Sequence record: MT446422.1
Direction: 5' to 3' (one strand)
From: Escherichia virus TH57
Length of the DNA: 64,000 bases
The translations under genes were made by a program, and so were the position numbers. The notes below the pieces were generated by a model. That model did not search any database and had not been told where the DNA came from. It worked only from the letters and a program-made list of their open reading frames with translations. This document shows positions 3,739 through 54,622 of this stretch, piece after piece (positions within the stretch are counted from its first letter, which is position 1; each line of letters starts with the position of its first letter).

Positions 3739-4191
3739 ATGATTATCAATACAAACTCATGGCACGCTCGTTTCCACGACCGTTTTTATGACCGCCATTC
3801 TCGACCACACTCTTTGTGTGCTTACTTTTGGAAAATTGTATGGGCCTGCTTTATTTGTTCTGTGCTTGCAGGTAGTACAATCTTCGCCTTATCTGCTGCA
3901 GGTGCTGGTATATTGGAGCAGTTCTTTGTATTAAGTATTCCTGTTGGTTTAGGGTTAGGGTTTATTTTAGGACTAGCTACAGTAGCTCTTATTCTGGCTG
4001 TAGCATTTGGTTTAATGTACGGTCTAATGAATTTATGGTCCTGGTACGATTTACATAAAGAAGAAAAAGAATGGAAACGTATTCAAGCTGAGCGTGAAGG
4101 CCGAGAAACTAAAGAAAACGTTTTCATTCAATATATCAAAGCTCGTAAATCTAAGATGTGTCCGGTAATCCATTTTGAGGCGAAGAAATGA
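3739..4191 (+). CDS. hypothetical membrane protein
   Basis: 150 aa, two long hydrophobic segments, basic C-terminus. Confidence 0.55.
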   Translation: MIINTNSWHARFHDRFYDRHSRPHSLCAYFWKIVWACFICSVLAGSTIFALSAAGAGILEQFFVLSIPVGLGLGFILGLATVALILAVAFGLMYGLMNLWSWYDLHKEEKEWKRIQAEREGRETKENVFIQYIKARKSKMCPVIHFEAKK

Positions 4192-6484: not shown

Positions 6485-7333
6485 ATGTCACAAGCAATTA
6501 ATGAAATTCGTTCTGAAGTTAAAAAAGTTGTTAAATTCGGGCGTATTCCAAGCACTAAAGATGTGGTTTTAAATGTTCTATATATGATGTGGAATAAGTT
6601 CAATGTTTGTACTAATTCCGCTGAATTCACTAAAATCTTTGAAAAGACCAACGGTCTTCTTACATTAGAAGACCGAGTCATGAAATCTCTTCATCGTTCA
6701 GGTATGTTGTCTCGTGCTAATGCCAAAATTATTCTTAAAAAATATAACAAAGGTTACGACCTTTATGGTCGTGCGATTAGCACCATGACGTTTGATGAAG
6801 TGGTTAAAGACCTTTGGAAAAACCAGCGCCGTTTATTGGCATTAGGTGCTCGTTTAGCAAGCGGTCAAGATAAACAAATGACCTTTAAAACCAATAATTC
6901 TTTAGATTATAAACTATTTAATGTTATTAAAGGTCAAAATGAAGGCGAATACAGTATTTCTTCTTTTAGTGGATGTCAATACGAAAACTGGAAATTCCAC
7001 CTCCGTTTGGCTTTGTCTGAACTCGAATGTCACGGGGTTCTTACCTTTTATGATGTTAAAACTGGAGGCGTCCAGCGTATTAAATTATGTCAAATTAAAG
7101 ACCGAGTTGAAGTCGAGAGCCCCATTGAACAAGCTCCTAAAATGGAACCTGTTCCAGTGCGAAGCAATGAAAAATATTCAGAGCAAATTGAGCTTTTCAC
7201 TAAACAGATTGAAGAGCTCAACATCACCATCCAGCAGCAAGATGATGAAATTTTCCGTCTGTCGGGACTGAACAATGCAGCGAAAGCCGAACGTCAAAAA
7301 CTGATGAACGTTATTGAATTGCTTAAGGATTAA
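6485..7333 (+). CDS. hypothetical protein with C-terminal coiled-coil
   Basis: 282 aa; C-terminal ~45 aa heptad-like (QIEELNITIQQQDDEIFRL...). Confidence 0.55.
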   Translation: MSQAINEIRSEVKKVVKFGRIPSTKDVVLNVLYMMWNKFNVCTNSAEFTKIFEKTNGLLTLEDRVMKSLHRSGMLSRANAKIILKKYNKGYDLYGRAISTMTFDEVVKDLWKNQRRLLALGARLASGQDKQMTFKTNNSLDYKLFNVIKGQNEGEYSISSFSGCQYENWKFHLRLALSELECHGVLTFYDVKTGGVQRIKLCQIKDRVEVESPIEQAPKMEPVPVRSNEKYSEQIELFTKQIEELNITIQQQDDEIFRLSGLNNAAKAERQKLMNVIELLKD

Positions 7334-7551: not shown

Positions 7552-8439
7552 ATGAACATTAAAACACGTAAAGAATATTCTCGATTTGAACAGCGTGAAG
7601 GTCGTGCGACTCGTCTTATCGCGATGAATTCTCTGGTTAACTTTGGCAAAATTAAATCAGGTTCTGCCACCCAGGGGTATGGACAACGTATTGTAAGAAT
7701 TAACTCTCTGAATGATTACTGCCGCCGCCCGGCGTTTTTGTTTGGTGCCACAGTTCGTAAGAGCATCAAGGAAATCCTGGCTGCTGGGCTTCGTATTCGT
7801 AAAGCTCCGGTTAACATCAAGAACTATAATTTCAATTCTAGTAACTTGATTATCAATATCAAGAATGATGGTGTGCAGATTAAGTTCAAGCCAACTACTA
7901 AAGGCGATGTTGCCCTTTGTGATACCTTTAAAGAGGTTATGGGTATTGCTCTGTTTTATATGCGTCATGCTGTTGAAGCATACACGTTTGAAGAAGATAC
8001 AAATTATATCCATCAAACAGAAAAATTCCTTAAAACTATAACCATTGATATTAAATTAACTAAAGAATATCTTTTGTCTTATGCTCCTTATCAAGAGAAA
8101 AATGAACCAGAAGAGAAAAAGGAATCAGAAATGGAACGTATCCCTACTGCATCATATGGCCCAGCATTTGCAGGTCAGTATAAAACACAACCTATTTCAC
8201 CACCGGACGTTAAAAATATGTACAAATGGAACGTCCAGCCATCCAGCTCTCTTGGAATCTTTAACCCATCAATGAAACCTATTGAGAGCCATCATGCTGA
8301 TGCTATCCAGGAATCAGTCAACCGCTTAAACGGTCTGATTGAAGATGAGAAAAAGGGTATTCAGGACGTCCTGAATCGCATCAAGAACATGGAAAAACAA
8401 CGCAATAAATTGCAAGCTGCAATCAAAGCATTAAAATAA
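7552..8439 (+). CDS. hypothetical protein with C-terminal coiled-coil
   Basis: 296 aa from in-frame ATG just after upstream stop; C-terminal heptad-like tail. Confidence 0.5.
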   Translation: MNIKTRKEYSRFEQREGRATRLIAMNSLVNFGKIKSGSATQGYGQRIVRINSLNDYCRRPAFLFGATVRKSIKEILAAGLRIRKAPVNIKNYNFNSSNLIINIKNDGVQIKFKPTTKGDVALCDTFKEVMGIALFYMRHAVEAYTFEEDTNYIHQTEKFLKTITIDIKLTKEYLLSYAPYQEKNEPEEKKESEMERIPTASYGPAFAGQYKTQPISPPDVKNMYKWNVQPSSSLGIFNPSMKPIESHHADAIQESVNRLNGLIEDEKKGIQDVLNRIKNMEKQRNKLQAAIKALK

Positions 8440-11874: not shown

Positions 11875-12348
11875 ATGTTGTTGACTGGCAAATTATACAA
11901 AGAAGAAAAACAAAAACTTTATGATGCACAAGCTGGTAAGTGTCCAATTTGCCACCGTGATTTGGACTCTGATGTTCAGGCCAACCATCTTGACCATGAC
12001 CACGAATTGAACGGGCCAAAAGCCGGTAAGGTTCGCGGGTTACTATGCAATCTGTGCAATGGAACAGAAGGGCAAATGAAGCATAAGTTCAGCCGTTCGG
12101 GTCTGAAAGGTCGTGATGTTGACTACCTGGAATGGTTGGAGAGTTTGCTTGTCTATCTGAAATCTGATTATACCGAAAACAATATTCACCCCAATTTTGT
12201 AACAGACAAAGCCAAAGAGTTTGGCCGCCTGGGGAAAGAAGAAATGATTCGGGAAATGCTTTTGAATGGTATGACTTATAATGAATCTGACACCAAAACA
12301 CAATTAATGGCTTCATTTAAGAAGCAGCTTAGAAAGAGTTTAAAATGA
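11875..12348 (+). CDS. 49: endonuclease VII, Holliday junction resolvase
   Basis: 157 aa, near-identical to recalled T4 gp49 including Zn-binding cysteines. Confidence 0.92.
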   Translation: MLLTGKLYKEEKQKLYDAQAGKCPICHRDLDSDVQANHLDHDHELNGPKAGKVRGLLCNLCNGTEGQMKHKFSRSGLKGRDVDYLEWLESLLVYLKSDYTENNIHPNFVTDKAKEFGRLGKEEMIREMLLNGMTYNESDTKTQLMASFKKQLRKSLK

Positions 12349-14162
12349 CAATTGAAAACGAAATTGAAGGATTGATTCATAAAACTAATAAAGACCTTTT
12401 AAACGAGAATGCTAATAAAGATTCTCGTGTTTTTCCAACTCAACGTGACCTTATGGCTGGTATTGTATCTAAACACATTGCCAAAAATATGGTCGCGTCT
12501 TTTATTATGAAAGCACATGAAAGCGGAATTATTCATTTCCATGATATTGATTATTCCCCTGCTCTTCCATTTACTAATTGCTGTTTAGTAGATTTAAAAG
12601 GAATGCTTGAGAACGGATTTAAGCTTGGTAACGCACAGATTGAAACTCCTAAATCAATTGGTGTTGCTACTGCAATTATGGCACAAATTACTGCACAGGT
12701 TGCTTCTCACCAATATGGTGGAACGACTTTTGCTAATGTAGACAAAGTATTTTCTCCTTATGTTAAACGTACATACGCAAAACATATTGAAGACGCAGAA
12801 AAATGGCAAATCACTGATGCATTGAATTATGCCCAATCTAAAACAGAAAAAGACGTATACGATGCATTCCAAGCTTATGAATACGAAGTAAATACTCTCT
12901 TTAGTTCAAACGGACAAACGCCTTTTGTAACCATTACATTTGGTACGGGAACTGACTGGACTGAACGAATGATTCAGAAAGCAATTCTGAAAAATCGTAT
13001 CAAAGGTCTTGGTCGCGATGGGATAACTCCTATTTTCCCTAAACTTGTTATGTTCGTTGAAGAAGGTGTTAATCTTTATAAAGACGACCCGAACTATGAT
13101 ATTAAGCAGCTTGCTCTAGAGTGTGCAAGCAAAAGAATGTATCCTGATATTATTTCAGTTAAGAATAATAAAGCTATCACCGGTTCATCTATTCCTGTTT
13201 CTCCAATGGGTTGCCGTAGTTTCTTGAGCGTATGGAAAGATTCGACTGGTAATGAAATTCTTGATGGACGTAATAATCTTGGCGTTGTAACACTGAATCT
13301 TCCTCGTATTGCATTAGATTCTTATATTGGAACACAGTTCAATGAACAGAAATTTATCGAATTGTTTAATGAGCGAATGGATTTATGTTTTGAAGCATTG
13401 ATGTGCAGAATTAGTTCCTTAAAAGGAATTAAAGCGACTGTTGCTCCTATTCTTTACCAAGAAGGTGCGTTCGGGGTTCGTCTTAAACCTGATGATGATA
13501 TAATTGAGTTATTTAAAAACGGTAGAAGTTCAGTGTCTTTGGGATACATTGGTATTCACGAATTGAATATTCTTGTCGGTCGTGATATTGGGCAGGAAAT
13601 TTTAACTAAAATGAATGCTCGTCTTAAGCAGTGGACCGAAAGAACCGGTTTTGCTTTTAGCTTGTATTCTACTCCCGCTGAAAACCTTTGTTATCGATTC
13701 TGTAAACTTGATACTGAAAAATATGGAAGTGTAAAAGATGTTACCGATAAAGGATGGTACACTAACAGTTTCCATGTTTCAGTAGAAGAAAATATTACTC
13801 CGTTTGAAAAGATTTCTCGCGAAGCACCATATCATTTCATTGCGACAGGTGGTCACATTTCTTATGTTGAACTTCCTGATATGAAAAATAACTTAAAAGG
13901 TCTTGAGGCTGTATGGGATTATGCTGCACAACATTTAGATTATTTTGGTGTTAATATGCCAGTAGATAAATGTTTTACGTGTGGAAGTACCCATGAGATG
14001 ACTCCTACTGAAAACGGATTTGTTTGTTCTATTTGTGGAGAAACTGACCCTAAAAAGATGAACACAATAAGAAGAACATGCGGCTATCTTGGAAACCCGA
14101 ACGAACGCGGATTTAATCTCGGCAAAAATAAAGAAATCATGCATAGGGTTAAACACCAATGA
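12345..14162 (+). CDS. nrdD: anaerobic ribonucleoside-triphosphate reductase
   Basis: 605 aa uninterrupted; C-terminal CxxC Zn site; T4 NrdD-like. Confidence 0.92.
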   Translation: MTIENEIEGLIHKTNKDLLNENANKDSRVFPTQRDLMAGIVSKHIAKNMVASFIMKAHESGIIHFHDIDYSPALPFTNCCLVDLKGMLENGFKLGNAQIETPKSIGVATAIMAQITAQVASHQYGGTTFANVDKVFSPYVKRTYAKHIEDAEKWQITDALNYAQSKTEKDVYDAFQAYEYEVNTLFSSNGQTPFVTITFGTGTDWTERMIQKAILKNRIKGLGRDGITPIFPKLVMFVEEGVNLYKDDPNYDIKQLALECASKRMYPDIISVKNNKAITGSSIPVSPMGCRSFLSVWKDSTGNEILDGRNNLGVVTLNLPRIALDSYIGTQFNEQKFIELFNERMDLCFEALMCRISSLKGIKATVAPILYQEGAFGVRLKPDDDIIELFKNGRSSVSLGYIGIHELNILVGRDIGQEILTKMNARLKQWTERTGFAFSLYSTPAENLCYRFCKLDTEKYGSVKDVTDKGWYTNSFHVSVEENITPFEKISREAPYHFIATGGHISYVELPDMKNNLKGLEAVWDYAAQHLDYFGVNMPVDKCFTCGSTHEMTPTENGFVCSICGETDPKKMNTIRRTCGYLGNPNERGFNLGKNKEIMHRVKHQ

Positions 14163-14629
14163 ATTACGATAGAATATATCCTTGCGATTTTATTAATGGT
14201 CCTGGCTGCAGGGCCGTTCTTTTCGTTACAGGTTGTTTGCATAAATGCGAAGGGTGTTATAATAAATCAACATGGAATGCTAGAAATGGTGTTCCATTCA
14301 CTGGTGAAACACTAGAACAATTAATTGAATGTTTGAATAATGATTATATAGAAGGATTGACTATAACTGGAGGAGACCCTCTCTATCCCGATAACCGAGA
14401 TGTTATTCACTCTGTGGTTCAAACTATTAAAAATCTTTATCCCAATAAAAGCATTTGGTTGTGGACCGGATATAAGTTTGAAGATATTAAACAACTAGAA
14501 ATGCTTAAATATGTTGATGTTATTATTGATGGGAAGTATGAGAAAAATCTTCCGACCAAAAAACTGTGGCGAGGGTCAGATAATCAGCGACTTTGGTCAA
14601 ATACCGATGGGGTGTGGAAACATGATTAA
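14159..14629 (+). CDS. nrdG: anaerobic RNR activating protein (radical SAM)
   Basis: 156 aa; CxxxCxxC cluster motif near N-terminus; ATGA overlap with nrdD. Confidence 0.9.
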   Translation: MNYDRIYPCDFINGPGCRAVLFVTGCLHKCEGCYNKSTWNARNGVPFTGETLEQLIECLNNDYIEGLTITGGDPLYPDNRDVIHSVVQTIKNLYPNKSIWLWTGYKFEDIKQLEMLKYVDVIIDGKYEKNLPTKKLWRGSDNQRLWSNTDGVWKHD

Positions 14630-26172: not shown

Positions 26173-26388
26173 ATGAAGCATGAAATTGAAACATGCGAAC
26201 GCCTTAAAGAAATATATGGACTTTCCCCAACTCAAACTATTTTTGACCTTTCCGAAGAACTTCAAATAGAATTTCAAAAGGAACTCAAGAAATTATTGCA
26301 TCCTGGGCAGAGAGTCTTCCAGGCTATGGTTAGAACTAAAGATGAAAAGGGGAATCCGACCATCGAACGTCGTACAATAGAAATTTAA
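26173..26388 (+). CDS. hypothetical protein
   Basis: 71 aa between regA and the gene 43 control region; start uncertain. Confidence 0.4.
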   Translation: MKHEIETCERLKEIYGLSPTQTIFDLSEELQIEFQKELKKLLHPGQRVFQAMVRTKDEKGNPTIERRTIEI

Positions 26389-26473: not shown

Positions 26474-29188
26474 ATGCAAGAATTTTATTTAACTATCGAA
26501 CAAATCGGTGACAATCTGCTTGAACGATACATTGACAAGAACGGTCATGAACGTGTTCGTGAAATCCCTTATGCTCCATGCTTGTTTATGCATGCCCGTG
26601 AAGACCAGGCTGCAAAGTATACAGACATCTATAATAAAGGTTGTGTGAAAAAAGAATTCGATTCCATGCGTGATGCATCCCAGTGGATGAAGCGAATGAA
26701 TGACATGGGTCTCGAAGCTATGGGTATGGATGACTTTAAACTCGCATACTTGTCCGACCGTTACCCGCACGAAATCAAATACGATTCAAGTAAAATCCGT
26801 GTGGCTAACTTCGATATCGAGGTGACATCTCCTGATGGGTTCCCTGAGCCGTCTGAAGCACGTCACCCTATTGATGCCCTGACGCACTATGATTCGGTAG
26901 ACGATAAATTCTATGTCTTTGACCTTTTGAGCTCACCATACGCCACTGTGGAGCAATGGTCTATCGATATTGCTGCTAAGCTGCAAGAAGATGGCGGCGA
27001 TGAAGTCCCCGAAGAAATCCTGGAAAAAATTGTTTATATGGCCTTCGATTCAGAAGAAGAAATGCTCCAGCAGTATTTGGTATTCTGGAACGAGAAAACT
27101 CCGGTTATGTTGACTGGTTGGAACATCGAGAAGTTTGATATTCCATATATCTACAACCGCCTTAAAAATGTGTTTGGTGAAGCTACGGCAAAACGTCTGA
27201 GTCCACATCGTCGTACAAAAGTTAAGGTCATTAACAACGGATTCGGTGAAGAACAAGAAATCATTCAGATTCTGGGTATCTCTGTTCTGGATTATCTGGA
27301 CCTGTATAAAAAGTTCAGCTTCACAAACCAACCATCTTATTCGTTGGATTATGTTGCAGAATCTGAGCTGGGTGTTGGTAAACTCCCGTATGATGGTCCG
27401 ATTTCTAAACTGCGTGAATCAAATCACCAACGGTATATTTCTTATAACATCATCGACGTTTATCGTGTTGTGCAGATTGACCGTAAGCGACAGTTTATTA
27501 ACCTAAGCCAGTCAATGGGTTATTATGCAAAAATGCAGATTCAGTCTGTATTCAGCCCAATCAAAACTTGGGATGCGATTATCTTTAACAGCCTGAAGAC
27601 GCAAAACAAAGTCATTCCGGAAACCAAATCGCATGTTCGCCAATCGTTCCCTGGTGCATTTGTTAAGGAACCGATTCCGAACGCATACAAATACGTTATG
27701 AGCTGTGACTTAACATCTCTGTATCCGAGCATCATCCGACAGATTAACATCAGTCCAGAAACGATTGCCGGGTCATTTGCACCTGCGCCGATGTACGAAT
27801 ACATTGCAGGAACTGCTGACCGTCCATCTGATACATTTAGTTGTGCTCCAAACGGTATGATGTATTTTAAAGATGTTGCGGGTATTATTCCGACAGAAGT
27901 CACCAAGGTGTTTAATCAGCGTAAAGAACACAAAGGCTATATGCTTGCGGCTCAACGTAATGGTGAACTGATTAAGGAAGCTCTGCGTAATCCAGGAACT
28001 GGTACAACCGAGCCTGAAGTTGATTATCGTTATGACTTTGATGACAATATGAAAACAACCTTGCATGGTCTGAATCAAACAGTCCTGAATGGTATGTTGT
28101 ACAAAGCGCAGATGGAAGAAGTTGCTGGTATGACCGCACAGATTAACCGTAAACTGCTTATCAACAGTTGTTATGGTGCTCTGGGTAATATCTGGTTCCG
28201 TTACTTTGACCTGCGAAATGCAACCGCGATTACATCTTTCGGGCAACTTGCATTGCAGTGGATTGAGCGTAAAGTTAACGAATATTTTGATAGTGTTTGT
28301 GGTACAAGTGGTGAAACATATGTATTCTATGGCGATACTGACTCCATTTATATCCAGTGCGATAACCTGATTAAAAAGGTTGGTGGCGAATCTAAATTCC
28401 GCGATACAAACCACCTGGTTGACTTCATGGACAAGTTTGCGAAAGACCGTCTGGAACCAGCAATCGATAAAGCTTTCCGTGAACTAGCTGAATACATGAA
28501 CAACAAACAGCACCTTATGTTTATGGACCGTGAAGCGATTGCATGTCCTCCACTTGGTTCTAAAGGTGTTGGTGGATTCTGGACGGCGAAGAAGCGTTAT
28601 GCTCTGAACGTGTACGATATGGAAGGCACACGATATGCTGTTCCGAAACTGAAAATCATGGGTCTGGAAACTCAAAAGTCGAGCACACCAAAAGCATGTC
28701 AGAAAGCTCTGAAAGAATGTATCCGCCGTATGTTGCAAGAAGGTGAAGAATCTCTGCAGACGTACTTCAAGGAATTCAACAAGGAATTTAATGAGCTTAA
28801 TTACATGACCATCGCAGGTGTATCATCGGTTAACAACATCCAGAAATATAATGAGGGTGGTTTCCCTGGATTTAAGTGTCCGGCTCATATCAAAGGCGTG
28901 CTTGCTTACATGCGTGCAACCAAAGGGCTGAAGACTGTTCCACAAATCATGGAAGGGGAAAAGGTGTATGTGCTTCCTCTTAAAGTTGGTAACCCGTTTG
29001 GCGAAACCGTGATTGCGTGGCCATCAGGGATTGAACTCCCGATTGAAATTCGTGACCAAGTCTTGCAGTGGATGGACTACAACACACTGTTCCAGAAGAC
29101 TTTTGTTAAGCCATTGACAGGGTTCTCTGAAGCAGCTAAGGTTGATTACGAGAAAAAAGCATCTCTTTTTGATATGTTTGACTTTTAA
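26474..29188 (+). CDS. 43: DNA polymerase gp43 (family B)
   Basis: 904 aa, uninterrupted; exonuclease and polymerase motifs (FDIE, YGDTDS). Confidence 0.95.
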   Translation: MQEFYLTIEQIGDNLLERYIDKNGHERVREIPYAPCLFMHAREDQAAKYTDIYNKGCVKKEFDSMRDASQWMKRMNDMGLEAMGMDDFKLAYLSDRYPHEIKYDSSKIRVANFDIEVTSPDGFPEPSEARHPIDALTHYDSVDDKFYVFDLLSSPYATVEQWSIDIAAKLQEDGGDEVPEEILEKIVYMAFDSEEEMLQQYLVFWNEKTPVMLTGWNIEKFDIPYIYNRLKNVFGEATAKRLSPHRRTKVKVINNGFGEEQEIIQILGISVLDYLDLYKKFSFTNQPSYSLDYVAESELGVGKLPYDGPISKLRESNHQRYISYNIIDVYRVVQIDRKRQFINLSQSMGYYAKMQIQSVFSPIKTWDAIIFNSLKTQNKVIPETKSHVRQSFPGAFVKEPIPNAYKYVMSCDLTSLYPSIIRQINISPETIAGSFAPAPMYEYIAGTADRPSDTFSCAPNGMMYFKDVAGIIPTEVTKVFNQRKEHKGYMLAAQRNGELIKEALRNPGTGTTEPEVDYRYDFDDNMKTTLHGLNQTVLNGMLYKAQMEEVAGMTAQINRKLLINSCYGALGNIWFRYFDLRNATAITSFGQLALQWIERKVNEYFDSVCGTSGETYVFYGDTDSIYIQCDNLIKKVGGESKFRDTNHLVDFMDKFAKDRLEPAIDKAFRELAEYMNNKQHLMFMDREAIACPPLGSKGVGGFWTAKKRYALNVYDMEGTRYAVPKLKIMGLETQKSSTPKACQKALKECIRRMLQEGEESLQTYFKEFNKEFNELNYMTIAGVSSVNNIQKYNEGGFPGFKCPAHIKGVLAYMRATKGLKTVPQIMEGEKVYVLPLKVGNPFGETVIAWPSGIELPIEIRDQVLQWMDYNTLFQKTFVKPLTGFSEAAKVDYEKKASLFDMFDF

Positions 29189-29190
29189 GT

Positions 29191-29257
29191 GTTTACAACG
29201 GCAAAGGACTGCCGTATGATTACTCCATCAACTGATGAATAACTTAAGGATATTAAA
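29191..29257 (+). promoter_or_regulatory. early promoter, CATCAAC leader type, upstream of imm
   Basis: GTTTAC, 18 bp, TATGAT, TACTCCATCAACTGATG leader. Confidence 0.5.
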
Positions 29258-29500
29258 ATGGAAACATTAATTGCGGGTACTGTTGTTCTGGGTGCTGGCT
29301 CTTTCTTCCTGGCTGCACTGGCATATTTTCTGCCGTGGATTATCGCACTACTGCGAGGAACCAAAAGTAATTGCGGAATCTTCTTTGTTAACCTCCTGTT
29401 AGGTTGGACAATGGTCGGATGGTTTATTGCATTTATCTGGGCACTCGTTGCTGAGCGTAAATCAAACGCACAAGTAATTATCATCAAGGAAACCAAATGA
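29258..29500 (+). CDS. imm: superinfection immunity protein Imm
   Basis: 80-aa two-TM protein with YFLPWIIA motif; downstream of 43 as in T4. Confidence 0.8.
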   Translation: METLIAGTVVLGAGSFFLAALAYFLPWIIALLRGTKSNCGIFFVNLLLGWTMVGWFIAFIWALVAERKSNAQVIIIKETK

Positions 29501-29640
29501 AGATAATTACAATTATTATACTGATTGCATTTTTTAGTATGTCAATCTATTGGGCAATAATGACTCCGCATATGATTCCAACTTTAATTTTGGGTTGGGT
29601 ATTTTTGGGGCTCCAAGCTCGCTATGAATGTTTTAATTGA
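29497..29640 (+). CDS. hypothetical small membrane protein (imm.1 position)
   Basis: 47 aa, ATGA overlap with imm; not in track. Confidence 0.4.
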   Translation: MKIITIIILIAFFSMSIYWAIMTPHMIPTLILGWVFLGLQARYECFN

Positions 29641-29650
29641 GGAAAATACA

Positions 29651-30154
29651 ATGAAAAAGTTAGCTATCGCAGCTGTTATGCTGCTATCTGGTTGTGCTTA
29701 CCAGGGCGATGTAGTTAATGTCAGTGAAATTGGTAAAGCGCGAATTGCTGCAGACCGTCAGGTGCATAATGGTTCCTTTGATTTCAAAGGTGGTACTGGA
29801 CTTATCTACAAACGCGACAACAATCAATGTGGAAACAACTGCGCAAAATATGCTCAACAAGAAATTGAGTACAAACGCGAGCAAGCTGCAAAGCATGACG
29901 AAATCATTGCCAAGCTGGAAGCAGAAACTAAGCGACAAAATGACTTGGATACTGTTAACCAGATTTCACAGGTCTGCATGTCATACATCAATATGCAGAT
30001 AAACATCATGCGCGCGGAAGCTTATCAGGCAGCGGAGACGGGTTCTCCAAAAGCCAATGAGTATCGCGATATGTATCAGCGGTCTGCTCAAAATCGTCTG
30101 AGCTATATTAATAAATGTGTGGCTAAAGAGAAAGCCCGCCAAGGTATTAACTAA
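29651..30154 (+). CDS. hypothetical lipoprotein
   Basis: 167 aa from ATG with GAGGAAAA SD; signal peptide plus lipobox LSGC; sits where T4 has 42 and beta-gt. Confidence 0.55.
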   Translation: MKKLAIAAVMLLSGCAYQGDVVNVSEIGKARIAADRQVHNGSFDFKGGTGLIYKRDNNQCGNNCAKYAQQEIEYKREQAAKHDEIIAKLEAETKRQNDLDTVNQISQVCMSYINMQINIMRAEAYQAAETGSPKANEYRDMYQRSAQNRLSYINKCVAKEKARQGIN

Positions 30155-30177
30155 CATTAATTGCTCTAAAAATACAG

Positions 30178-30186
30178 TGATATAAT
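30178..30186 (+). promoter_or_regulatory. extended -10 promoter element upstream of uvsX
   Basis: TGATATAAT. Confidence 0.35.
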
Positions 30187-30239
30187 TATCCTATCTTAAA
30201 CCTGTGAGAAAAATATAATGGTGCCTATGGAAAAAATGA

Positions 30240-31418
30240 ATGTCTATTGCAGATTTGAAATCCCGTTTGATTAAAGCTTCTACATCCAAAATGACTGCGA
30301 CTCTTACTAAGTCCAAGTTTTTTAATGATAAAGATGTAGTTCGTACAAAAATCCCGATGCTGAACATTGCAATCAGCGGTGCACTAGATGGTGGTATGCA
30401 GTCAGGTTTGACTATTTTTGCTGGTCCGTCAAAACACTTTAAATCCAATATGGGTTTAACGATGGTCTCTGCATATATGAACAAATACCCCGAAGCAATC
30501 TGTTTGTTCTATGATTCAGAATTTGGTATCACAGAAGCCTATCTGCGTGCAATGAAAGTAGACCCGGAGCGTGTTATCCACACACCAATCCAGTCGGTTG
30601 AACAATTGAAAGTTGATATGGTTAACCAGCTTGAAGCAATTGAGCGTGGTGAAAAAGTCATTATCTTTATTGACTCAATCGGTAACATGGCGTCAAAAAA
30701 AGAAACAGAAGATGCGATGAACGAAAAAGTCGTTGGCGATATGACTCGTGCTAAATCCCTGAAATCTCTGTTCCGTATTGTTACCCCATATTTTAGTATC
30801 AAGGATATTCCTTGTGTCGCGGTTAACCATACAATCGAGACGATTGAGATGTATAGCAAAACCGTTATGACCGGTGGTACAGGTGTTATGTATTCTGCGG
30901 ACACCGTATTCATTATCGGCAAACGCCAGATTAAAGAAACTGGTAAAGAACTTGAAGGTTTCCAATTTGTTCTGAATGCCGAAAAATCTCGTATGGTCAA
31001 AGAGAAAAGTAAATTCTTCATTGATGTAAAATTCGATGGTGGTATTGACCCGTATTCTGGCCTGCTTGATATGGCAATGGAAATCGGATTTGTAGTGAAA
31101 CCGAAAGTTGGTTGGTATAACCGTGAATATCTTGATGTTGAGACCGGTGAAATGGTCCGCGAAGAAAAATCATGGCGTGCAAAAGATACTAACTGTACTG
31201 AATTCTGGGGCCCGTTGTTTAAGCACGAACCTTTCCGTGACGCAATCAAACGCCATTACCAACTGGGTGCAATCGATAGCAATGCTGTTGTTGATGCCGA
31301 AGTTGATGCGCTTATTGCCTCCAAGGTTGAAAAATACTCTGCCCCTGAAGGTAAGGCAAAACCATCTGCGGCAGATATCGAAAACGATTTAGATATGATG
31401 GAAGACCTTGATGAATGA
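30240..31418 (+). CDS. uvsX: recombinase UvsX (RecA-like)
   Basis: 392 aa; Walker A GPSKHFKS; high identity to recalled T4 UvsX. Confidence 0.95.
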   Translation: MSIADLKSRLIKASTSKMTATLTKSKFFNDKDVVRTKIPMLNIAISGALDGGMQSGLTIFAGPSKHFKSNMGLTMVSAYMNKYPEAICLFYDSEFGITEAYLRAMKVDPERVIHTPIQSVEQLKVDMVNQLEAIERGEKVIIFIDSIGNMASKKETEDAMNEKVVGDMTRAKSLKSLFRIVTPYFSIKDIPCVAVNHTIETIEMYSKTVMTGGTGVMYSADTVFIIGKRQIKETGKELEGFQFVLNAEKSRMVKEKSKFFIDVKFDGGIDPYSGLLDMAMEIGFVVKPKVGWYNREYLDVETGEMVREEKSWRAKDTNCTEFWGPLFKHEPFRDAIKRHYQLGAIDSNAVVDAEVDALIASKVEKYSAPEGKAKPSAADIENDLDMMEDLDE

Positions 31419-31752
31419 TATCGATTTATCTGATTTAGATAATTTCGAGAAAGATGCGGAGGGAGCTAAGGCTCCTTCTGTGCCTTACTACGAAAAAAGT
31501 TTGGAGATTATCCGGCAATCCATGGGAACCGTACGACAGGAAATTCTGTTATCACTCCCTGATGGGTCCAATCACATTGTGTACGTAACCGGAATTAAAA
31601 TTGAACCATCTGGAAAAGTTTCCGTTGATTTCGGCACCCCTTCTGAAGACCGCAAAGCGGAGCTTGCAGTGCATGTAGAAAAGTGTGTTACAATGCAAAT
31701 ACAAGATGAAATTGATAAGATTAAAATGAAAAAGAGGTGGTGGAAGTGGTAG
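31408..31752 (+). CDS. 40: gp40-like protein (positional)
   Basis: 114-aa ORF between uvsX and 41 as in T4. Confidence 0.5.
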   Translation: MMNDIDLSDLDNFEKDAEGAKAPSVPYYEKSLEIIRQSMGTVRQEILLSLPDGSNHIVYVTGIKIEPSGKVSVDFGTPSEDRKAELAVHVEKCVTMQIQDEIDKIKMKKRWWKW

Positions 31753-33176
31753 AAACTATTTTATCCCAGCTACTCTTTAACAAGGAATATTTTGTTAAAG
31801 TCTGGCCATATCTTAATAACACATATTTTGAAAAGGGTCCAGCAAAGACCCTTTTTAATACGATTAACGAACACGTAAAAGAATATCAAGCGGTACCAAC
31901 TAAGACTGCACTTGATATCGCGCTCGACAGTTCTGACCTTTCTGAAGTCGAATATGAAGGCACAAAGAAACTCTTAGGAGTCCTGGCCGATACTCCAGAA
32001 GACCAGGAATGGTTGGTCAAAGAAACCGAGAAGTATGTACAGAAGTCTGCGATGTTCAATGCCACATCCAGGATTATCGAAATCCAGAGTAATGCCGAAC
32101 TTCCAAAAGATAAACGTGATAAACGAATCCCAGATATTGGGGCTATCCCTGACATCATGCGCGATGCATTGTCCATCTGTTTTGACTCTGCTCTGGGGCA
32201 TGACTGGTTAAACGATTACGAAGCTCGATTCCAGACTTATCTGAACAAATCGAAGAAGGTTCCGTTCCGTATTAACATCCTGAATAAAATCACGAAGGGT
32301 GGAGTTGAGTACGGCACAGAGAACGTTTTACTGGCCGGGACAAACGTCGGCAAATCCCTTGGACTTTGTTCGTTAGCGGCTGACTATCTTCAGACTGGTC
32401 ATAACGTGCTTTATATAAGCATGGAAATGGCTGAAGAAGTATGTGCCAAACGTATTGATGCCAACTTGTTGGATGTATCTCTGGATGATATTGATGAAGG
32501 TCATGTGTCATGGGCAGAATACAAAAGTAAGATGGAAAAATGGCGTGCTTCCGGGACTCTCGGGACTCTGAAGATAAAACAATATCCAACTGGGGGCGCG
32601 CATGCGGATACCTTCCGTGCATTACTGAACGAGTACAAACTGAAGCAAGGATTTGTACCGGATGTGATTATTGTTGACTACCTGGCAATCTGCGCAAGCT
32701 CAAGACTGAAAACGTTTACCGAAAACAGTTACGGCCTGATTAAGATGGTTGCAGAAGAACTTCGTGGTCTGGCGGTCGAGAAAAATGTGGTCCTGTGGAC
32801 TGCAGCACAGACAACCAGGGGCGCAAACGTTGCAGCTGAGATTGACATGGCTGACATCGCAGAATCCTTTGGTATTGCTCACACGGCTGACTTTATGTTG
32901 GGTGTTGTTGAGACCGAAGAATTCGCTCAAATGGGACTGCAGTTAATCAAACAGCTTAAGTCTCGTTATGGCGATAAGAACTACTATAATAAATTCAAGA
33001 TGGGTGTTAAGAAAGGTAATCAACGCTGGTATGAGGTTGATGATGATTCAGCTCCTAAACAAGGCCCTACGGTGAAAGAAGCCACTGGTGAGATGAATCG
33101 TCAGGCTGAAATGAATAGACAAACCAGGGTCAACAGGAGCGACCTGGATGACCTTGCCGCTCAAATGAAATTTTAA
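31746..33176 (+). CDS. 41: replicative DNA helicase gp41
   Basis: 476 aa from GTG with GAGGTGG SD, N-terminus aligns with T4 gp41; Walker A GTNVGKS. Confidence 0.9.
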   Translation: MVETILSQLLFNKEYFVKVWPYLNNTYFEKGPAKTLFNTINEHVKEYQAVPTKTALDIALDSSDLSEVEYEGTKKLLGVLADTPEDQEWLVKETEKYVQKSAMFNATSRIIEIQSNAELPKDKRDKRIPDIGAIPDIMRDALSICFDSALGHDWLNDYEARFQTYLNKSKKVPFRINILNKITKGGVEYGTENVLLAGTNVGKSLGLCSLAADYLQTGHNVLYISMEMAEEVCAKRIDANLLDVSLDDIDEGHVSWAEYKSKMEKWRASGTLGTLKIKQYPTGGAHADTFRALLNEYKLKQGFVPDVIIVDYLAICASSRLKTFTENSYGLIKMVAEELRGLAVEKNVVLWTAAQTTRGANVAAEIDMADIAESFGIAHTADFMLGVVETEEFAQMGLQLIKQLKSRYGDKNYYNKFKMGVKKGNQRWYEVDDDSAPKQGPTVKEATGEMNRQAEMNRQTRVNRSDLDDLAAQMKF

Positions 33177-33778: not shown

Positions 33779-34120
33779 ATGGCTTTTAATCCAGAAGACC
33801 GCGTAAAAGTAACAATCAAAGTGAGTGCTGTTGGTGTACCATCTTTTGAACGTTCTAGCATGTTCCACCCAGCAGGTATTCACTGGTATGTCCAGAAGAC
33901 TGCTGATAACTATAATGCACTGGTTGAAGCTTTTGTTGATGACAAGCTAATTCATAAAGTAGACATGCGTAAGGGTACTGCATTGCGTAATCTGATTTTG
34001 ACCGTTGAAGCTCAACTGGTAAATGAAGAAATCTGCCTTACTGATATTGAAGCAGCTCTTCATATTGCGCGTGCTGAATATTACAACTTGACTGGTTTTT
34101 CAGTTGAAGGCGAAAAATAA
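33779..34120 (+). CDS. Dmd-like paralog
   Basis: 113 aa; shares the NALVEAFVDDKLI core with the adjacent Dmd. Confidence 0.5.
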   Translation: MAFNPEDRVKVTIKVSAVGVPSFERSSMFHPAGIHWYVQKTADNYNALVEAFVDDKLIHKVDMRKGTALRNLILTVEAQLVNEEICLTDIEAALHIARAEYYNLTGFSVEGEK

Positions 34121-34178
34121 GTGTACAACAAAGGGATAATGCTGTATATTATCCCTATCAACTACTGAGGAGATTGAA
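34121..34178 (+). promoter_or_regulatory. early promoter cassette with inverted repeat, CATCAACTACTGA leader type
   Basis: GTGTAC; AGGGATAAT...ATTATCCCT inverted repeat around -10; TATCAACTACTGAGGAG leader. Confidence 0.55.
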
Positions 34179-34472
34179 ATGAAAAAGTTATTAATTGCAG
34201 CAATTCTTACCGTAGCATCATGTGGTACAGCTCCAGTTACTGCTGGGCTTGATAAAGACCTTTGTGAGTGGTCTATGACCGCTGACCAGACTGATGTTGA
34301 ACATCAGATTTATGCTGATATCATGAACATAACTAAACGTGACCGTCCTGATATGGTTAAAGAAGTGTCTGACCAACTGGCTTCTGGTGACGTTATGCAG
34401 TATAACTATGTTCTGTATTGCGATGCTTCATTCGACAACAGCAAAATTGTTCAATGGGTTACAGGTGAATAA
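34179..34472 (+). CDS. sp: spackle-like periplasmic protein Sp
   Basis: 97 aa, signal peptide with lipobox-like VASC; size and position match T4 sp; CEWSMTADQT motif. Confidence 0.6.
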   Translation: MKKLLIAAILTVASCGTAPVTAGLDKDLCEWSMTADQTDVEHQIYADIMNITKRDRPDMVKEVSDQLASGDVMQYNYVLYCDASFDNSKIVQWVTGE

Positions 34473-34473
34473 A

Positions 34474-34911
34474 ATGATTAACAGAAATTTGGTTATCAAA
34501 AAACTTCGCTGTAAAAATCCAAATGCGCAAGCATACAGAGTGTTTTGGAGCGACGAGATTCAATATCTGGGTTATTTTCTTGTTGACAGTGATAATAGAA
34601 TTACGTTTGCTCATAAGCTTCTTAACAAAGAATTAAACCATTGGCAAGAACTTATTGCAGTCAAGTCTAAATTATTTTCATGCAATGCAATGCACCAATT
34701 GGTTTATTTTTTCGCTGATGGTATTCCTGACAAGGTTGAGTTTGAAGGGTTTGAATTTAAAGACATCAATCCAGACAATGAATTGAATAATGATGTTGTT
34801 AATATGGGTATCCCTGGTAAGTACATCAAAAACAGTCTTTTGAAAATTCTGGAAAATCCTGTTTATTCAGTTGACGACCAAATTTTTAATGCCTTTATGA
34901 AGCGAGATTAA
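34474..34911 (+). CDS. hypothetical protein (61.2 position)
   Basis: 145 aa from in-frame ATG after sp stop; C-terminus DDQIFNAFMKRD. Confidence 0.5.
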   Translation: MINRNLVIKKLRCKNPNAQAYRVFWSDEIQYLGYFLVDSDNRITFAHKLLNKELNHWQELIAVKSKLFSCNAMHQLVYFFADGIPDKVEFEGFEFKDINPDNELNNDVVNMGIPGKYIKNSLLKILENPVYSVDDQIFNAFMKRD

Positions 34912-34912
34912 T

Positions 34913-35269
34913 ATGAGTTATTATAATTTTCTGAATTTTGAACTGGCCAGCAATAATGATGGTAATGCTCGTTATGAATTTCGTGAGCCTCGGTTTAATC
35001 AGGCGATTGGTTATATTATCGTTAAAGATGATGTTATCATAAAGGCTCGCTCATTTATGGTAATGGATGGACCTTATGAAGATACTCGTGGATACCCATT
35101 TGATAAAAAGAATGTGCGCGATTGCGCAATCTGGATAACTGGGAACCCTGAAATTGGGGTCATGATATCTACTGAAGCGAATGACATTCTGGAAGGGGTA
35201 GCCAAAGCTCAAGAACCGCCTACTGATATTGATGACCAGATTTTTAATGCCTTCATGAAGCGAGGTTAA
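34913..35269 (+). CDS. hypothetical protein (61.1 position)
   Basis: 118-aa ORF; C-terminus DDQIFNAFMKRG repeats the upstream gene tail. Confidence 0.5.
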   Translation: MSYYNFLNFELASNNDGNARYEFREPRFNQAIGYIIVKDDVIIKARSFMVMDGPYEDTRGYPFDKKNVRDCAIWITGNPEIGVMISTEANDILEGVAKAQEPPTDIDDQIFNAFMKRG

Positions 35270-35270
35270 T

Positions 35271-35492
35271 ATGTTTGTTTTGACCCAATTCTCTAAAGCA
35301 ATATATAGTTACTCTTGCCAGTGGGAAGTCTTTATTGATACTCCTTCGCCTAAGTATGGTGTTTTTGGACGAGTAACTACTCAAGCTTATGTTGCACGAC
35401 CGACTAAACGTCAGATTCGTAAACTTAAAAAGGCACATCGTCAATTGATTAAAAGAAGGGAACAATATGAGTGCAATGTGTACGGGCTCTAA
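35271..35492 (+). CDS. hypothetical basic protein
   Basis: 73-aa ORF. Confidence 0.45.
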   Translation: MFVLTQFSKAIYSYSCQWEVFIDTPSPKYGVFGRVTTQAYVARPTKRQIRKLKKAHRQLIKRREQYECNVYGL

Positions 35493-35658
35493 GATTTCGG
35501 TCTTCCAGATTTTTGAAGAATATGAAATCGTGTCGCAAGACCAAGAAGCAATCCATGTTATCGCTGATGATGGTGTTACCTGGATTATTCCGTTGTATCA
35601 TGAAGACACTTATGAAGTGACTGATGCAAATGGTGATAAAGCTATCTTCGTTGTATAA
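35467..35658 (+). CDS. hypothetical protein
   Basis: 63-aa ORF. Confidence 0.45.
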   Translation: MSAMCTGSKISVFQIFEEYEIVSQDQEAIHVIADDGVTWIIPLYHEDTYEVTDANGDKAIFVV

Positions 35659-35661
35659 ATA
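35654..35661 (+). promoter_or_regulatory. late promoter TATAAATA
   Basis: exact TATAAATA 17 nt upstream of the 35678 ATG. Confidence 0.5.
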
Positions 35662-35677
35662 GCGGAAAGGGGGTGTT

Positions 35678-35845
35678 ATGAAAACATTCAAAGATTTTAT
35701 AAACGAAGATATGGTTGCCGGTGATGCAGGTGGAAACCCAACTAATATCGCAACAGGTACCACTTCCGGGGCAGTTGTCAATAAAGGCCCTGAACAAATC
35801 CCATCAAAAAAGCGTAAGAACAAAGACGATAAACCTACAGTATAA
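35678..35845 (+). CDS. hypothetical small protein, possibly late-expressed
   Basis: 55 aa, AAAGGGGG SD, K/R-rich tail, followed by GGTCCC-CC-GGGACC hairpin; not in track. Confidence 0.4.
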   Translation: MKTFKDFINEDMVAGDAGGNPTNIATGTTSGAVVNKGPEQIPSKKRKNKDDKPTV

Positions 35846-37014: not shown

Positions 37015-37212
37015 CTATATAAGGCCGATTAATGCCAGTGAAACATCTACAACTGATTCGAGTGCGATGACTGGCAATATAACGCCATGTGCCAATGCAA
37101 CAGGGGCAACAATGAAATTCCAGAGTAGAACTAAACAGAGTATCGAAAGGACTAGAATCGTTCGCTTACGACTGCCTTTGATGGCTTGAATTAGACTAGA
37201 TAGTTTTAGCAT
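37015..37212 (-). CDS. hypothetical small membrane protein on opposite strand
   Basis: 65 aa from ATG with AAAGGAGG SD; two hydrophobic segments; only minus-strand ORF with a strong RBS inside the early block. Confidence 0.5.
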   Translation of the reverse strand: MLKLSSLIQAIKGSRKRTILVLSILCLVLLWNFIVAPVALAHGVILPVIALESVVDVSLALIGLI

Positions 37213-37296
37213 ATATCCTCCTTTCTTGTATTTATGCTTCAAACCAATATGATATAATTAACATACAAACAACATGAATTGATAAGGAAAAATATA

Positions 37297-37815
37297 ATGG
37301 CTCATTTTAATGAATGTTCACAACTGATTGCTGGTGTTGACAAAGCTGAAGAAGCTTATGACAATGCAATTATCGAAGGCACTGACCCGCTGCAGATTAT
37401 GCTTGATATGCAGAAATCATTGCAGGTCCGTTTGGCTACTGAAAAACCAGAATACAACTCACATCCAGACGAATTGGCTACCGCCGGCGATGTTGTTGCA
37501 TGGCTTCGTAACCAGAAAGATTATGTTGATGATGAATTCCGTGAACTTCTAACTTCTCTCGGTGGTATGTCTAATGGCGAGAAAGCTGCATCTAGTGTAT
37601 GGAAGCCTTGGAAAGCCCAACATGCTGAATTCCGTAATCGTCGTATTGATGAGTTGTCTCCTGAAGACCAGCTCGAAATTAAATTTGAGATGATTGACAT
37701 CCTGCACTTTGTTCTGAACATGTTCCATGGTCTTGGCCTGTCGGCAGAAGAAATCTTTAAATTGTATTACCTGAAAAATGCTGAAAACTTTGCTCGTCAA
37801 GACCGAGGTTATTAA
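37297..37815 (+). CDS. 56: dCTPase-dUTPase gp56
   Basis: 172 aa from MAHFNEC; strong match to recalled T4 gp56. Confidence 0.9.
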   Translation: MAHFNECSQLIAGVDKAEEAYDNAIIEGTDPLQIMLDMQKSLQVRLATEKPEYNSHPDELATAGDVVAWLRNQKDYVDDEFRELLTSLGGMSNGEKAASSVWKPWKAQHAEFRNRRIDELSPEDQLEIKFEMIDILHFVLNMFHGLGLSAEEIFKLYYLKNAENFARQDRGY

Positions 37816-53775: not shown

Positions 53776-54045
53776 ATGATTAAGCATTTCAATGTGTCAG
53801 ACCGTGACATCAAAGTTTCAAATCTCCGGGGTCACCATTACGCAGGAATAGTTTACTGTGGCAAGCTCATCAAGCATGAAGGTGATGTTCACTATGGCTG
53901 GTTGGAATGTGATGAAGTAGTTGTTGGGGAATTCCCTGACCCGGATTCTGATACATTTGATGCTAATGACCGTTTGTATTATGGCGAGCTTCATATCCGG
54001 GGAATCGTCGGTATCGATGAGGTAAAAGATGATTCAGAAGAGTAA
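53776..54045 (+). CDS. hypothetical protein
   Basis: 89-aa ORF. Confidence 0.5.
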   Translation: MIKHFNVSDRDIKVSNLRGHHYAGIVYCGKLIKHEGDVHYGWLECDEVVVGEFPDPDSDTFDANDRLYYGELHIRGIVGIDEVKDDSEE

Positions 54046-54622
54046 AACATGGGAGCATCTGAAAAAGATGCCCTCCTTTCTTTATACAAAGGAAGACTTA
54101 ACACCTGAATCCCTACAAAAGATTGTAGACACGGCCAGGTATTCATTGCGTAAAGACCCAGGTCAAGACCGTGAGCAAGTCATGCAAAGATGTATGGTGG
54201 CTACAATGGCAGAACAAGCTATTGCTAAATGGACCTCCGGCTTTTTATGCGGCGGTGATGAAGATTACGATAATCCTTATTCCTTTGCATTTGATGTAGT
54301 TTCGAAGGAAGGGGTAAGAATCGAAGTCAAGACCCACCAGTCTGGTTCCAAATGGATATCCGTGCATACTGGTAGTCAGGGCGATTATCCACATGGTTAC
54401 GGGATTAATCTTGGTCCTTTTATGCAACACAAGCTTGCTGACCTTATGATTATGTTTAATGTAAAAGAGACTATCAAAGGTTATAGATTTAAACCAAAAT
54501 TCCTTGCTGGGCCTGGGGCTTTTGTTCCTGAGTCCGGTCTTGTGCAGAAGTCACAAGGGGATGGCTGGTACCTCCGTTCTTGTTCAGAAGAAAAATTCCC
54601 CTATCACCGGTTTACAAGCTGA
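54029..54622 (+). CDS. hypothetical protein (possibly denB-like by position)
   Basis: 197-aa ORF between rIIB and ndd; no motif recognised. Confidence 0.45.
   Translation: MIQKSKTWEHLKKMPSFLYTKEDLTPESLQKIVDTARYSLRKDPGQDREQVMQRCMVATMAEQAIAKWTSGFLCGGDEDYDNPYSFAFDVVSKEGVRIEVKTHQSGSKWISVHTGSQGDYPHGYGINLGPFMQHKLADLMIMFNVKETIKGYRFKPKFLAGPGAFVPESGLVQKSQGDGWYLRSCSEEKFPYHRFTS

Follow-up and report, generated by a model that had tools for sequence, protein, structure and literature searches.

We examined the interval between gene 43 (DNA polymerase) and the recombinase gene uvsX in a 64,000-nucleotide stretch of Escherichia virus TH57 (MT446422.1; hereafter the window, with positions counted from its first letter), an interval in which T4 keeps gene 42, for deoxycytidine monophosphate (dCMP) hydroxymethylase, and the glucosyltransferase gene beta-gt. 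In the window the order is 43, imm, an open reading frame (ORF) for a 47-residue membrane protein, a gene for a 167-residue lipoprotein and uvsX, beyond which lie 40 and 41. VR7 and EAWsc9 are annotated in accordance with this ORF map, and the order and coordinates reported from 43 to uvsX in an earlier note on this DNA, made from its letters alone, were correct (Table 1). The locus is probably best understood as a conserved imm module lying beside an empty slot, with cytosine replacement supplied from another locus, most likely as 5-methylcytosine (5mC) made by Td, a thymidylate synthase (TS) in which Asn177 has become Asp. With somewhat less assurance, we also favour the fuller proposal that cytosine in the DNA of Gaprivervirus, the genus concerned, is completely replaced by 5mC at the nucleotide level through this N177D enzyme, and that these phages have no dedicated dTMP synthase. 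Positions 29150-30300 of the window match Escherichia virus TH54 at 99.9% identity and some 30 further records, among them SP18, VR7, VR20, VR26 and EAWsc9, at 92-97%; the annotated regions used, those of VR7, EAWsc9 and TH54, all come from Gaprivervirus (Straboviridae, Tevenvirinae), T4-like coliphages. TH54 sequence was analysed in addition to the window and served for whole-genome searches (the TH54 composite), and we infer that the window's own genome carries the td of the Gaprivervirus records examined.

In JS98 (Dhakavirus) the order is 43, imm, orf44, orf43 (lipoprotein), orf42, orf41, orf40, orf39, orf38, uvsX, with orf39 a gp42/TS homolog. The imm gene, the small ORF and the lipoprotein gene stand in the same order in the two phages (68%, 56% and 52% identity, respectively), and a promoter-like region ahead of uvsX is likewise shared; the lipoprotein gene and uvsX, however, are separated in JS98 by a five-gene cassette of about 4.2 kb, whose TS homolog bears Glu143, Asn169 and Asp177 (residues numbered as in E. 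coli ThyA), and in the window by 85 bp. When the five JS98 cassette proteins (orf42-orf38) were searched by tblastn against the TH54 composite, no Gaprivervirus homolog was found. The DNA of RB69 contains arabinosylated 5-hydroxycytosine, the RB69 TS homolog gp48 being a 5-hydroxy-dCMP synthase; in Dhakaviruses, as in many further genera, syntenic arabinosylation clusters are located between the polymerase gene and rIIA (Lee et al. 2026, PMC13326640). On the JS98 gene order and this cassette synteny, the interval between the imm module and uvsX reads as a slot for interchangeable cytosine-modification cassettes, holding 42 and beta-gt (with segA) in T4, the 5-hydroxy-dCMP synthase and arabinosylation genes in RB69 and JS98, and an 85-bp spacer in the window. 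The slot is empty in Gaprivervirus, and the lipoprotein gene therefore abuts uvsX. Gene 42 and beta-gt occupy the corresponding slot in T4, and the upstream logic is shared with that phage (gp56 supplies dCMP and gp1 phosphorylates the product), but neither the window nor the Gaprivervirus genome contains a homolog of gene 42 or of the glucosyltransferase.

That last statement is based on several searches. The earlier note had seen no gene 42 or glucosyltransferase in the window, and this was upheld: with T4 gp42 and beta-gt as queries, tblastn against the window returned nothing below E=0.2 (best E for gp42, 0.21). The note had also allowed for gene 42 lying elsewhere in the genome, a location that we rejected on finding the searches of the TH54 composite empty; T4 gp42 and beta-gt gave no tblastn match there at E<0.01, and phmmer and a two-sequence hidden Markov model (HMM) for gp42, run on all composite ORFs of at least 70 residues, gave best E values of at least 0.04, none of which was accepted. 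The whole TH54 genome contained no RB69-type TS homolog, and tblastn detected no homolog of beta-gt or of the arabinosylation cluster (JS98 orf42, orf41, orf40 and orf38), so that the genome-wide search proposed in the note returned no gene 42, glycosyltransferase or arabinosyltransferase homolog from the composite. One TS-homolog place was found for each Gaprivervirus row listed in the phage collection. Two published studies (PMC8056088, 2021; PMC12115623, 2025) describe Gaprivervirus as being without an enzyme for hydroxymethylcytosine (hmC) yet keeping denB, alc, denA, ndd and the dCTPase gene, and both propose an unknown non-canonical base. Acinetobacter phages ZZ1 and 133 and Morganella phage MP1 are reportedly without gene 42 too, although alc and denB are retained in them.

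Several retained genes suggest that cytosine is still modified. The window encodes gp56, DenB and Ndd, and TH54 encodes Alc, gp1, Cd, Td and Frd. The gp56 protein passes the Pfam dUTPase_2 model (27.7 bits against a 22.9-bit cut-off), and its identity to JS98 gp56 extends over 173 residues, confirming the gene 56 that the earlier note had placed in the window; a Pfam scan of the DenB homolog gave no matching model. DenB is a nuclease specific for cytosine-containing DNA, and its retention implies that the phage's own DNA is not of that kind. Because gp56, DenB, Alc and Ndd are all retained, we consider cytosine replacement to be still needed. Gordeeva et al. (PMC6326788) describe VR7 as having "modified cytosines" and unglycosylated DNA, whereas VR5 (Dhakavirus) and T4 are glycosylated and T4147 is hydroxymethylated; the restriction analysis, with and without treatment by T4 beta-glucosyltransferase, is that of Supplementary Figure S4. 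The same paper reports that VR7 is fully restricted by BREX, as non-glycosylated phages are. Together with the retention of gp56, DenB, Alc, Ndd and gp1, the VR7 report supports the earlier note's suggestion that cytosine replacement persists with a different chemistry. Identity to JS98 falls to 47% for gp1, 48% for Alc and 49% for DenB, as against 78-90% for gp43, nrdA and gp56; that the proteins which recognise the base are the most diverged suggests co-adaptation.

The only gene of the TS superfamily in TH54 is that annotated td, adjoining frd in the frd-td-nrdA position (31525-32382 in the numbering of the TH54 stretch examined, about 15 kb past the 3' end of the window). Its product, like those of SP18, Yersinia phage P8 and EAWsc9, carries the motif GLPFDIGSYG. 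The corresponding motif of E. coli ThyA, T4 Td and JS98 Td is GLPFNIASYA, which places the Asp of the Gaprivervirus proteins at position 177. Asp177 was present in all four Gaprivervirus Td protein clusters, including SP18 and a branch of 86% identity with Yersinia phage P8, whereas a database search found Asn177 in 115 of the 116 other closest T4-like Td clusters. At positions 143, 169 and 177, E. coli ThyA, T4-type Td and JS98 Td have Leu, Asp and Asn; T4 gp42 has Asp at all three; JS98 orf39 has Glu, Asn and Asp; and Gaprivervirus Td, together with the lone other Asp177 enzyme (P0079), has Leu, Asp and Asp. The catalytic Cys146 (PPCH), His147 and the TS C-terminus are kept, as are Leu143 and Asp169 in the contexts QMALPPCH and QRSVDVF, respectively. 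Position 177 sets pyrimidine specificity, and the N177D substitution yields a dCMP methylase producing 5-methyl-dCMP (Yang et al. 2021, PMC8670742, citing Hardy & Nalivaika 1992 and Liu & Santi 1992); Leu143 excludes water and accompanies a methyl product, Asp or Glu at 143 is found in hydroxymethylases, and 5-hydroxy-dCMP synthases carry D169N (PMC13326640). Since Asn177 has changed to Asp while Leu143, Cys146, His147, Asp169 and the C-terminus are kept, Gaprivervirus Td bears the sequence signature of a 5-methyl-dCMP synthase (dCMP methyltransferase).

The TS fold with Asp177, Leu143 and Asp169 is shared with the dCMP methyltransferases of Xanthomonas phage Xp12 and Pseudomonas phage PaMx74, whose DNA is 5mC-substituted, and with the engineered enzymes TS N177D and L. 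casei N229D. When combined with T4 gp1 in E. coli, the N177D TS homolog of Xp12 produced 5-methyldeoxycytidine (5mdC), as did five of the seven metagenomic homologs (bioRxiv 10.1101/2024.12.05.627091). As in 5mC phages, a dCMP deaminase is also encoded, a possible source of dTMP or dTTP. Unlike those enzymes, the Gaprivervirus protein is about 70% identical to T4 Td, stands in td's own locus and belongs to a T4-like coliphage; it looks like a Td lineage with a switched substrate, or one swapped in from a related T4-like lineage represented by P0079. The proposed pathway would begin with gp56, converting dCTP and dCDP to dCMP and so feeding the modifying enzyme. Td(N177D) would then methylate dCMP to 5-methyl-dCMP, with Frd recycling the folate; gp1 and the host nucleoside diphosphate kinase would raise this to 5m-dCTP, to be incorporated by gp43, and the phage would draw its dTMP from host ThyA, from 5-methyl-dC nucleotides deaminated by Cd, or from both. 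The phage components gp1, Cd and Frd are retained in Gaprivervirus (TH54). In 5mC phages dTTP is obtainable by deamination of 5m-dCTP, so that no separate dTMP synthase is needed (bioRxiv 10.1101/2024.12.05.627091).

P0079, a protein of 292 residues, is encoded by an uncultured T4-like contig on which frd and td are arranged in the same way. It is more divergent, yet it shares many substitutions specific to Gaprivervirus, and among cultured phages its closest relatives are the Gaprivervirus Td proteins; in a neighbour-joining tree the five Asp177 variants formed one exclusive clade. Because P0079 groups with the Gaprivervirus enzymes, the switch to Asp177 would either predate the genus or occur in another lineage too. 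Identity to JS98 is 68.5% for td, 65% for frd and 66% for cd, against 90% for the adjacent nrdA, which suggests a mosaic swap of the td-frd block and would fit recombination with a P0079-like lineage as its source. The source of P0079 is a 5417-bp contig of Logan SRR24146912, with td at 3953-4831 and the genes frd.2, DUF5417, DHFR and td.

Td might instead be an ordinary dTMP synthase, with the modified cytosine coming from an unrecognised enzyme that acts at the nucleotide level or after replication. The identity to T4 Td of about 70% holds over the full length, the frd-td-nrdA position is the canonical one, and the protein passes the Pfam Thymidylat_synt model over its full length (8.3e-91) and matches T4 TS 1TIS at 2e-127, all of which would suit an unaltered function; several small Gaprivervirus-specific ORFs without an assignable function would, moreover, leave room for such an enzyme. 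We nevertheless regard this explanation as unlikely, for N177D is the classic switch away from dUMP (PMC8670742) and the fixation of Asp177 across the genus stands against its absence from all but one of the other T4-like clusters. Nor do the specific ORFs offer a good candidate. When the early regions of TH54 were compared with JS98, leaving aside JS98 81-120.6 kb (structural genes) and ignoring "specific" ORFs in the matching TH54 regions, none exceeded about 215 residues, and ten such ORFs, of 115-214 residues, had no Pfam match. Two EAWsc9 annotations that might have denoted modifying enzymes, "phytanoyl-CoA dioxygenase" and "nucleotidyltransferase", were rejected; they are common to JS98 (79% and 90% identity) and therefore cannot explain the difference between the two phages. 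This pair, a PhyH-type Fe(II)/2-oxoglutarate dioxygenase-like gene and a gene for a 319-residue nucleotidyltransferase, lies downstream of e/e.2 in both Gaprivervirus and Dhakavirus (EAWsc9 33994-35705 and JS98 31030-32981, in stretch numbering), resembles RB69 ORF132c/ORF134c and is unrelated to the gene 42 question.

We give equally little weight to a second alternative, in which Td(N177D) does use dCMP but the final base is not plain 5mC, being 5-hydroxymethylcytosine or a further, undescribed derivative. T4-like phages commonly elaborate their bases further, the published data on VR7 say just "modified cytosines", and gp1, Alc and DenB have diverged strongly. Leu143 is nonetheless kept in the Gaprivervirus enzyme, where hydroxymethylating enzymes have Asp or Glu143 and 5-hydroxylating ones have Asn169, and the supplement of PMC6326788 labels T4147 "hydroxymethylated" but VR7 merely "modified". 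Furthermore, neither tblastn with the cassette proteins nor Pfam analysis of the Gaprivervirus-specific ORFs yielded a glycosyltransferase or other transferase candidate, and the full restriction of VR7 by BREX is that of phages whose DNA is not glycosylated.

The earlier note had placed the lipoprotein gene in the position of gene 42 and beta-gt. Its product begins with a lipoprotein signal peptide, MKKLAIAAVMLLSG, continuing as CAYQ after the cleavage point, with the lipobox LSGC and Ala at +2. Under the Lol sorting rule, Ala at +2 predicts an outer-membrane anchor, and the protein is probably tethered to the outer membrane. T4 Imm.1 is also a lipoprotein, in which MKIAILVIALGLAG would be cleaved before the lipobox Cys from CVAQGPVVNQSDVGK, and it is 54% identical over 28 residues to the N-terminus of the window protein. 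In a PHROGs profile search the window lipoprotein matched phrog_1754 (1.4e-46; residues 1-161 on profile positions 2-147 of 148), as did T4 Imm.1 (6.1e-43; profile positions 2-146 of 148). Because this full-length match is common to both, the lipoprotein is, on profile evidence, an imm.1 homolog and a member of the T4 Imm.1 family, a relationship that the note had missed. In an alignment of 21 sequences of the phrog_1754 family, L12, G14 and C15 of the lipobox region were invariant, and a G-x-V-x(3)-[ED]-[IV]-G-K motif just after the lipid-modified Cys was kept, as were Tyr53, Gln59 and the C-terminal cysteines C109 and C156. The curated Pfam model for Imm.1, DUF5481 (PF17578), scored T4 Imm.1 at 5.2e-72 but left the window, JS98 and CIP9 proteins unmatched even at E<=10; the model was built on the short Tequatrovirus form only, and the longer form of the window escapes its detection.

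T4 imm.1 and the window gene thus share the signal peptide and lipobox, the post-Cys motif, the two C-terminal cysteines, phrog_1754 and the 43-imm neighbourhood. They differ in length, the window protein having about 40 additional residues, a CGNNC segment and a more extended helical region, and in gene order, the window gene following imm and the small ORF whereas imm.1 precedes imm in T4. The T4 record reads 43, imm.1, imm, small ORF, 42, beta-gt, segA, uvsX, and the order 43, imm, imm.1 quoted in the earlier note was mistaken. A gene of the lipoprotein family is found near 43-imm in T4, VR7, EAWsc9, JS98 and Kanagawavirus CIP9, its order relative to imm varying; the position is shared by the Dhakavirus homologs (about 50% identity), and others occur in CIP9 and in T4-like phages of Enterobacter, Serratia, Erwinia, Kosakonia and Edwardsiella. 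The claim that the lipoprotein occupies the gene 42/beta-gt position is accordingly not supported, in view of its Imm.1 membership and of JS98, in which the lipoprotein gene is followed by the cassette. The note had named the same lipoprotein at this position in phages with 42 and beta-gt elsewhere and ordinary glucosyl-hmC DNA, together with no exclusion phenotype, as grounds for abandoning the idea, and much of this is what we found, the JS98 gene preceding a modification cluster and imm.1 of T4, whose DNA contains glucosyl-hmC, lying beside imm.

The lipoprotein has no visible link to DNA chemistry and is no substitute for gene 42; judging from its adjacency to imm, it may plausibly act at the envelope alongside Imm. 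A literature search on imm.1 found no paper and no reported exclusion function. It is very unlikely, and the least probable of the alternatives weighed here, that the lipoprotein is a Gaprivervirus innovation replacing the missing cassette or a dedicated superinfection-exclusion factor acquired at the vacated position: the gene does adjoin the imm module directly before uvsX, the signal peptide marks an exported envelope protein, and Spackle and Imm are known envelope exclusion factors of T4-like phages, but the family is found in T4 itself, and in Dhakavirus its member stands in that position with an intact modification cluster downstream of it; this arrangement and the wider spread of the family among enterobacterial T4-like groups argue that nothing was recruited to a vacated slot. 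The profile search and structure prediction that the note had advised gave a divided outcome, with the phrog_1754 family match on one side and no informative fold match on the other. In the AlphaFold2 model (mean pLDDT score 69.7) the C-terminal half, about residues 75-167, formed a confident helical bundle; Foldseek with this model retrieved from BFVD the JS10 homolog only and from the PDB nothing below E=1.8, and a Pfam scan of the protein returned sub-threshold noise only.

Imm passes the Pfam model Imm_superinfect (PF14373) at 1e-17, with 64.2 bits against a gathering cut-off of 27.9, matches phrog_1039 at 1.8e-30 and is 52% identical to T4 Imm. The 47-residue ORF matches phrog_3610 over its full length (1.6e-26) and is 57% identical to an ORF of CIP9 and 52% identical to the T4 ORF between imm and 42. 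The same three genes recur in T4-like phages, with the order alone differing: in T4 and CIP9 gene 43 is immediately followed by imm.1, with the small ORF farther on, and the order in Dhakavirus and Gaprivervirus is imm, small ORF, imm.1-like gene. On this recurrence, imm, the small ORF and the Imm.1-like lipoprotein gene are read as a conserved early membrane module of T4-like phages. The T4 form of the small ORF, on the minus strand at about 26230-26367 of NC_000866.4, encodes a 49-residue membrane protein (MKSKIIAALLLILMIIISIYYSVTVPLMIPTIILGWSLLLLQVKYECIN) and is absent from the RefSeq annotation; the annotators of VR7 name the family gp42.1.

Within the spacer ahead of uvsX, a MotA-box-like TTGCTCTAA (30161-30169) is followed, 8 nt on, by an extended -10 element, TGATATAAT (30178-30186). 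Alignment showed the stretch to be conserved in VR7 and JS98, and it looks like a middle promoter of the T4 type. A promoter and terminator scan of 29100-30320 gave counts no higher than in shuffled sequence, and the simple sigma-70 scan left the MotA-box/extended -10 stretch unlisted. VR7 and JS98 also carry, just upstream of uvsX, a transmembrane ORF of about 42 residues (MIGMLLISLWLLSAFGIGFMYWWDKRQTRKIVERAINRGFNR in VR7) that is cleanly deleted in the window and in TH54, between short TTAATT(G/T)CT repeats; it lies within VR7 7010-7250 and JS98 7868-8069 (numbering of the stretches examined) and is unannotated in VR7.

Several points weigh against the assignment of 5mC and the picture of the locus that goes with it. 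Our search of the literature on the Gaprivervirus base found no biochemical or mass-spectrometric identification, and the published wording for VR7 (PMC6326788) is only "modified cytosines". The N177D signature is imperfect, two of the seven metagenomic enzymes having given no 5mdC (bioRxiv 10.1101/2024.12.05.627091), and the td sequence comes from TH54 and other Gaprivervirus records, the gene lying some 15 kb beyond the window. Phage DNA in which all cytosine is 5mC should be a target of McrBC/McrA-type restriction, and gp56 would have to leave 5m-dCTP intact, as Alc and DenB would 5mC DNA. For the lipoprotein, the N-terminal half of the AlphaFold2 model was of low confidence and the fold searches were uninformative.

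The absence of gene 42 from Gaprivervirus, the Imm.1 family, the TS N177D enzymes and the 5mC phages Xp12 and PaMx74 were already known. The base assignment and the td switch appear to be new within the literature searched, a limited collection in which no paper assigning the Gaprivervirus base or noting the switch was found. The absence of gene 42 matters more than the lipoprotein, which is the ordinary part of the locus, enlarging the uncharacterised Imm.1 family and giving it a second gene order. If the 5mC assignment is true, it would be the first 5mC-substituted case in E. coli phages or Tevenvirinae of which we are aware, and would answer the question of the non-canonical base raised by the 2021 and 2025 papers; uncertainty about that base has explicitly blocked judgement of the safety of Gaprivervirus in therapy, owing to the risk of transduction. 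T4-like phages would then use at least three TS-family chemistries (hydroxymethyl, hydroxy and methyl) within one conserved pathway frame, and Gaprivervirus would provide a natural example of td recruited for base replacement. The sensitivity of VR7 to BREX and an expected exposure to McrBC-type restriction would be explained, and an easily grown E. coli phage would become a source of fully 5mC-substituted DNA, for which the usual source is now the Xanthomonas phage Xp12.

Table 1. Features of the 43-uvsX locus and related genes, in window coordinates.
Feature	Position	Strand	Basis
Gene 43 DNA polymerase, upstream anchor	26474..29188	+	904-residue ORF; 78% identity to JS98 gp43; DNA polymerase in VR7 and EAWsc9
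imm, superinfection immunity membrane protein	29258..29500	+	Pfam PF14373; phrog_1039; identity to T4 and JS98 Imm
47-residue single-pass membrane ORF ("42.1"-like)	29497..29640	+	Hydrophobic; phrog_3610
Imm.1-family lipoprotein, 167 residues	29651..30154	+	Lipobox LSGC; phrog_1754
85-bp spacer, read as the site of the cytosine-modification cassette in other Tevenvirinae	30155..30239	+	Sequence reading; VR7/JS98 alignment
uvsX recombinase, downstream anchor	30240..31418	+	392-residue ORF; 72% identity to JS98 UvsX; uvsX in VR7 and EAWsc9
Gene 56 dCTPase/dUTPase	37297..37815	+	86% identity to JS98 gp56; Pfam dUTPase_2
denB (endonuclease IV) homolog	54029..54622	+	49% identity to JS98 DenB; endonuclease IV in EAWsc9

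Two further observations concern other parts of the window. The ORFs at 12345-14162 (605 residues) and 14159-14629 (156 residues) match in position the anaerobic ribonucleotide reductase and its activating protein (nrdD and nrdG) of EAWsc9; the parts of JS98 examined contain no counterpart, the JS98 annotation running from 55.8 straight to gene 49. On the minus strand at 37015-37242, between gene 61 and gene 56, lies a hydrophobic ORF of 75 residues, an odd reverse-strand membrane gene for the early region, whose counterpart in EAWsc9 is annotated as a member of a holin family.

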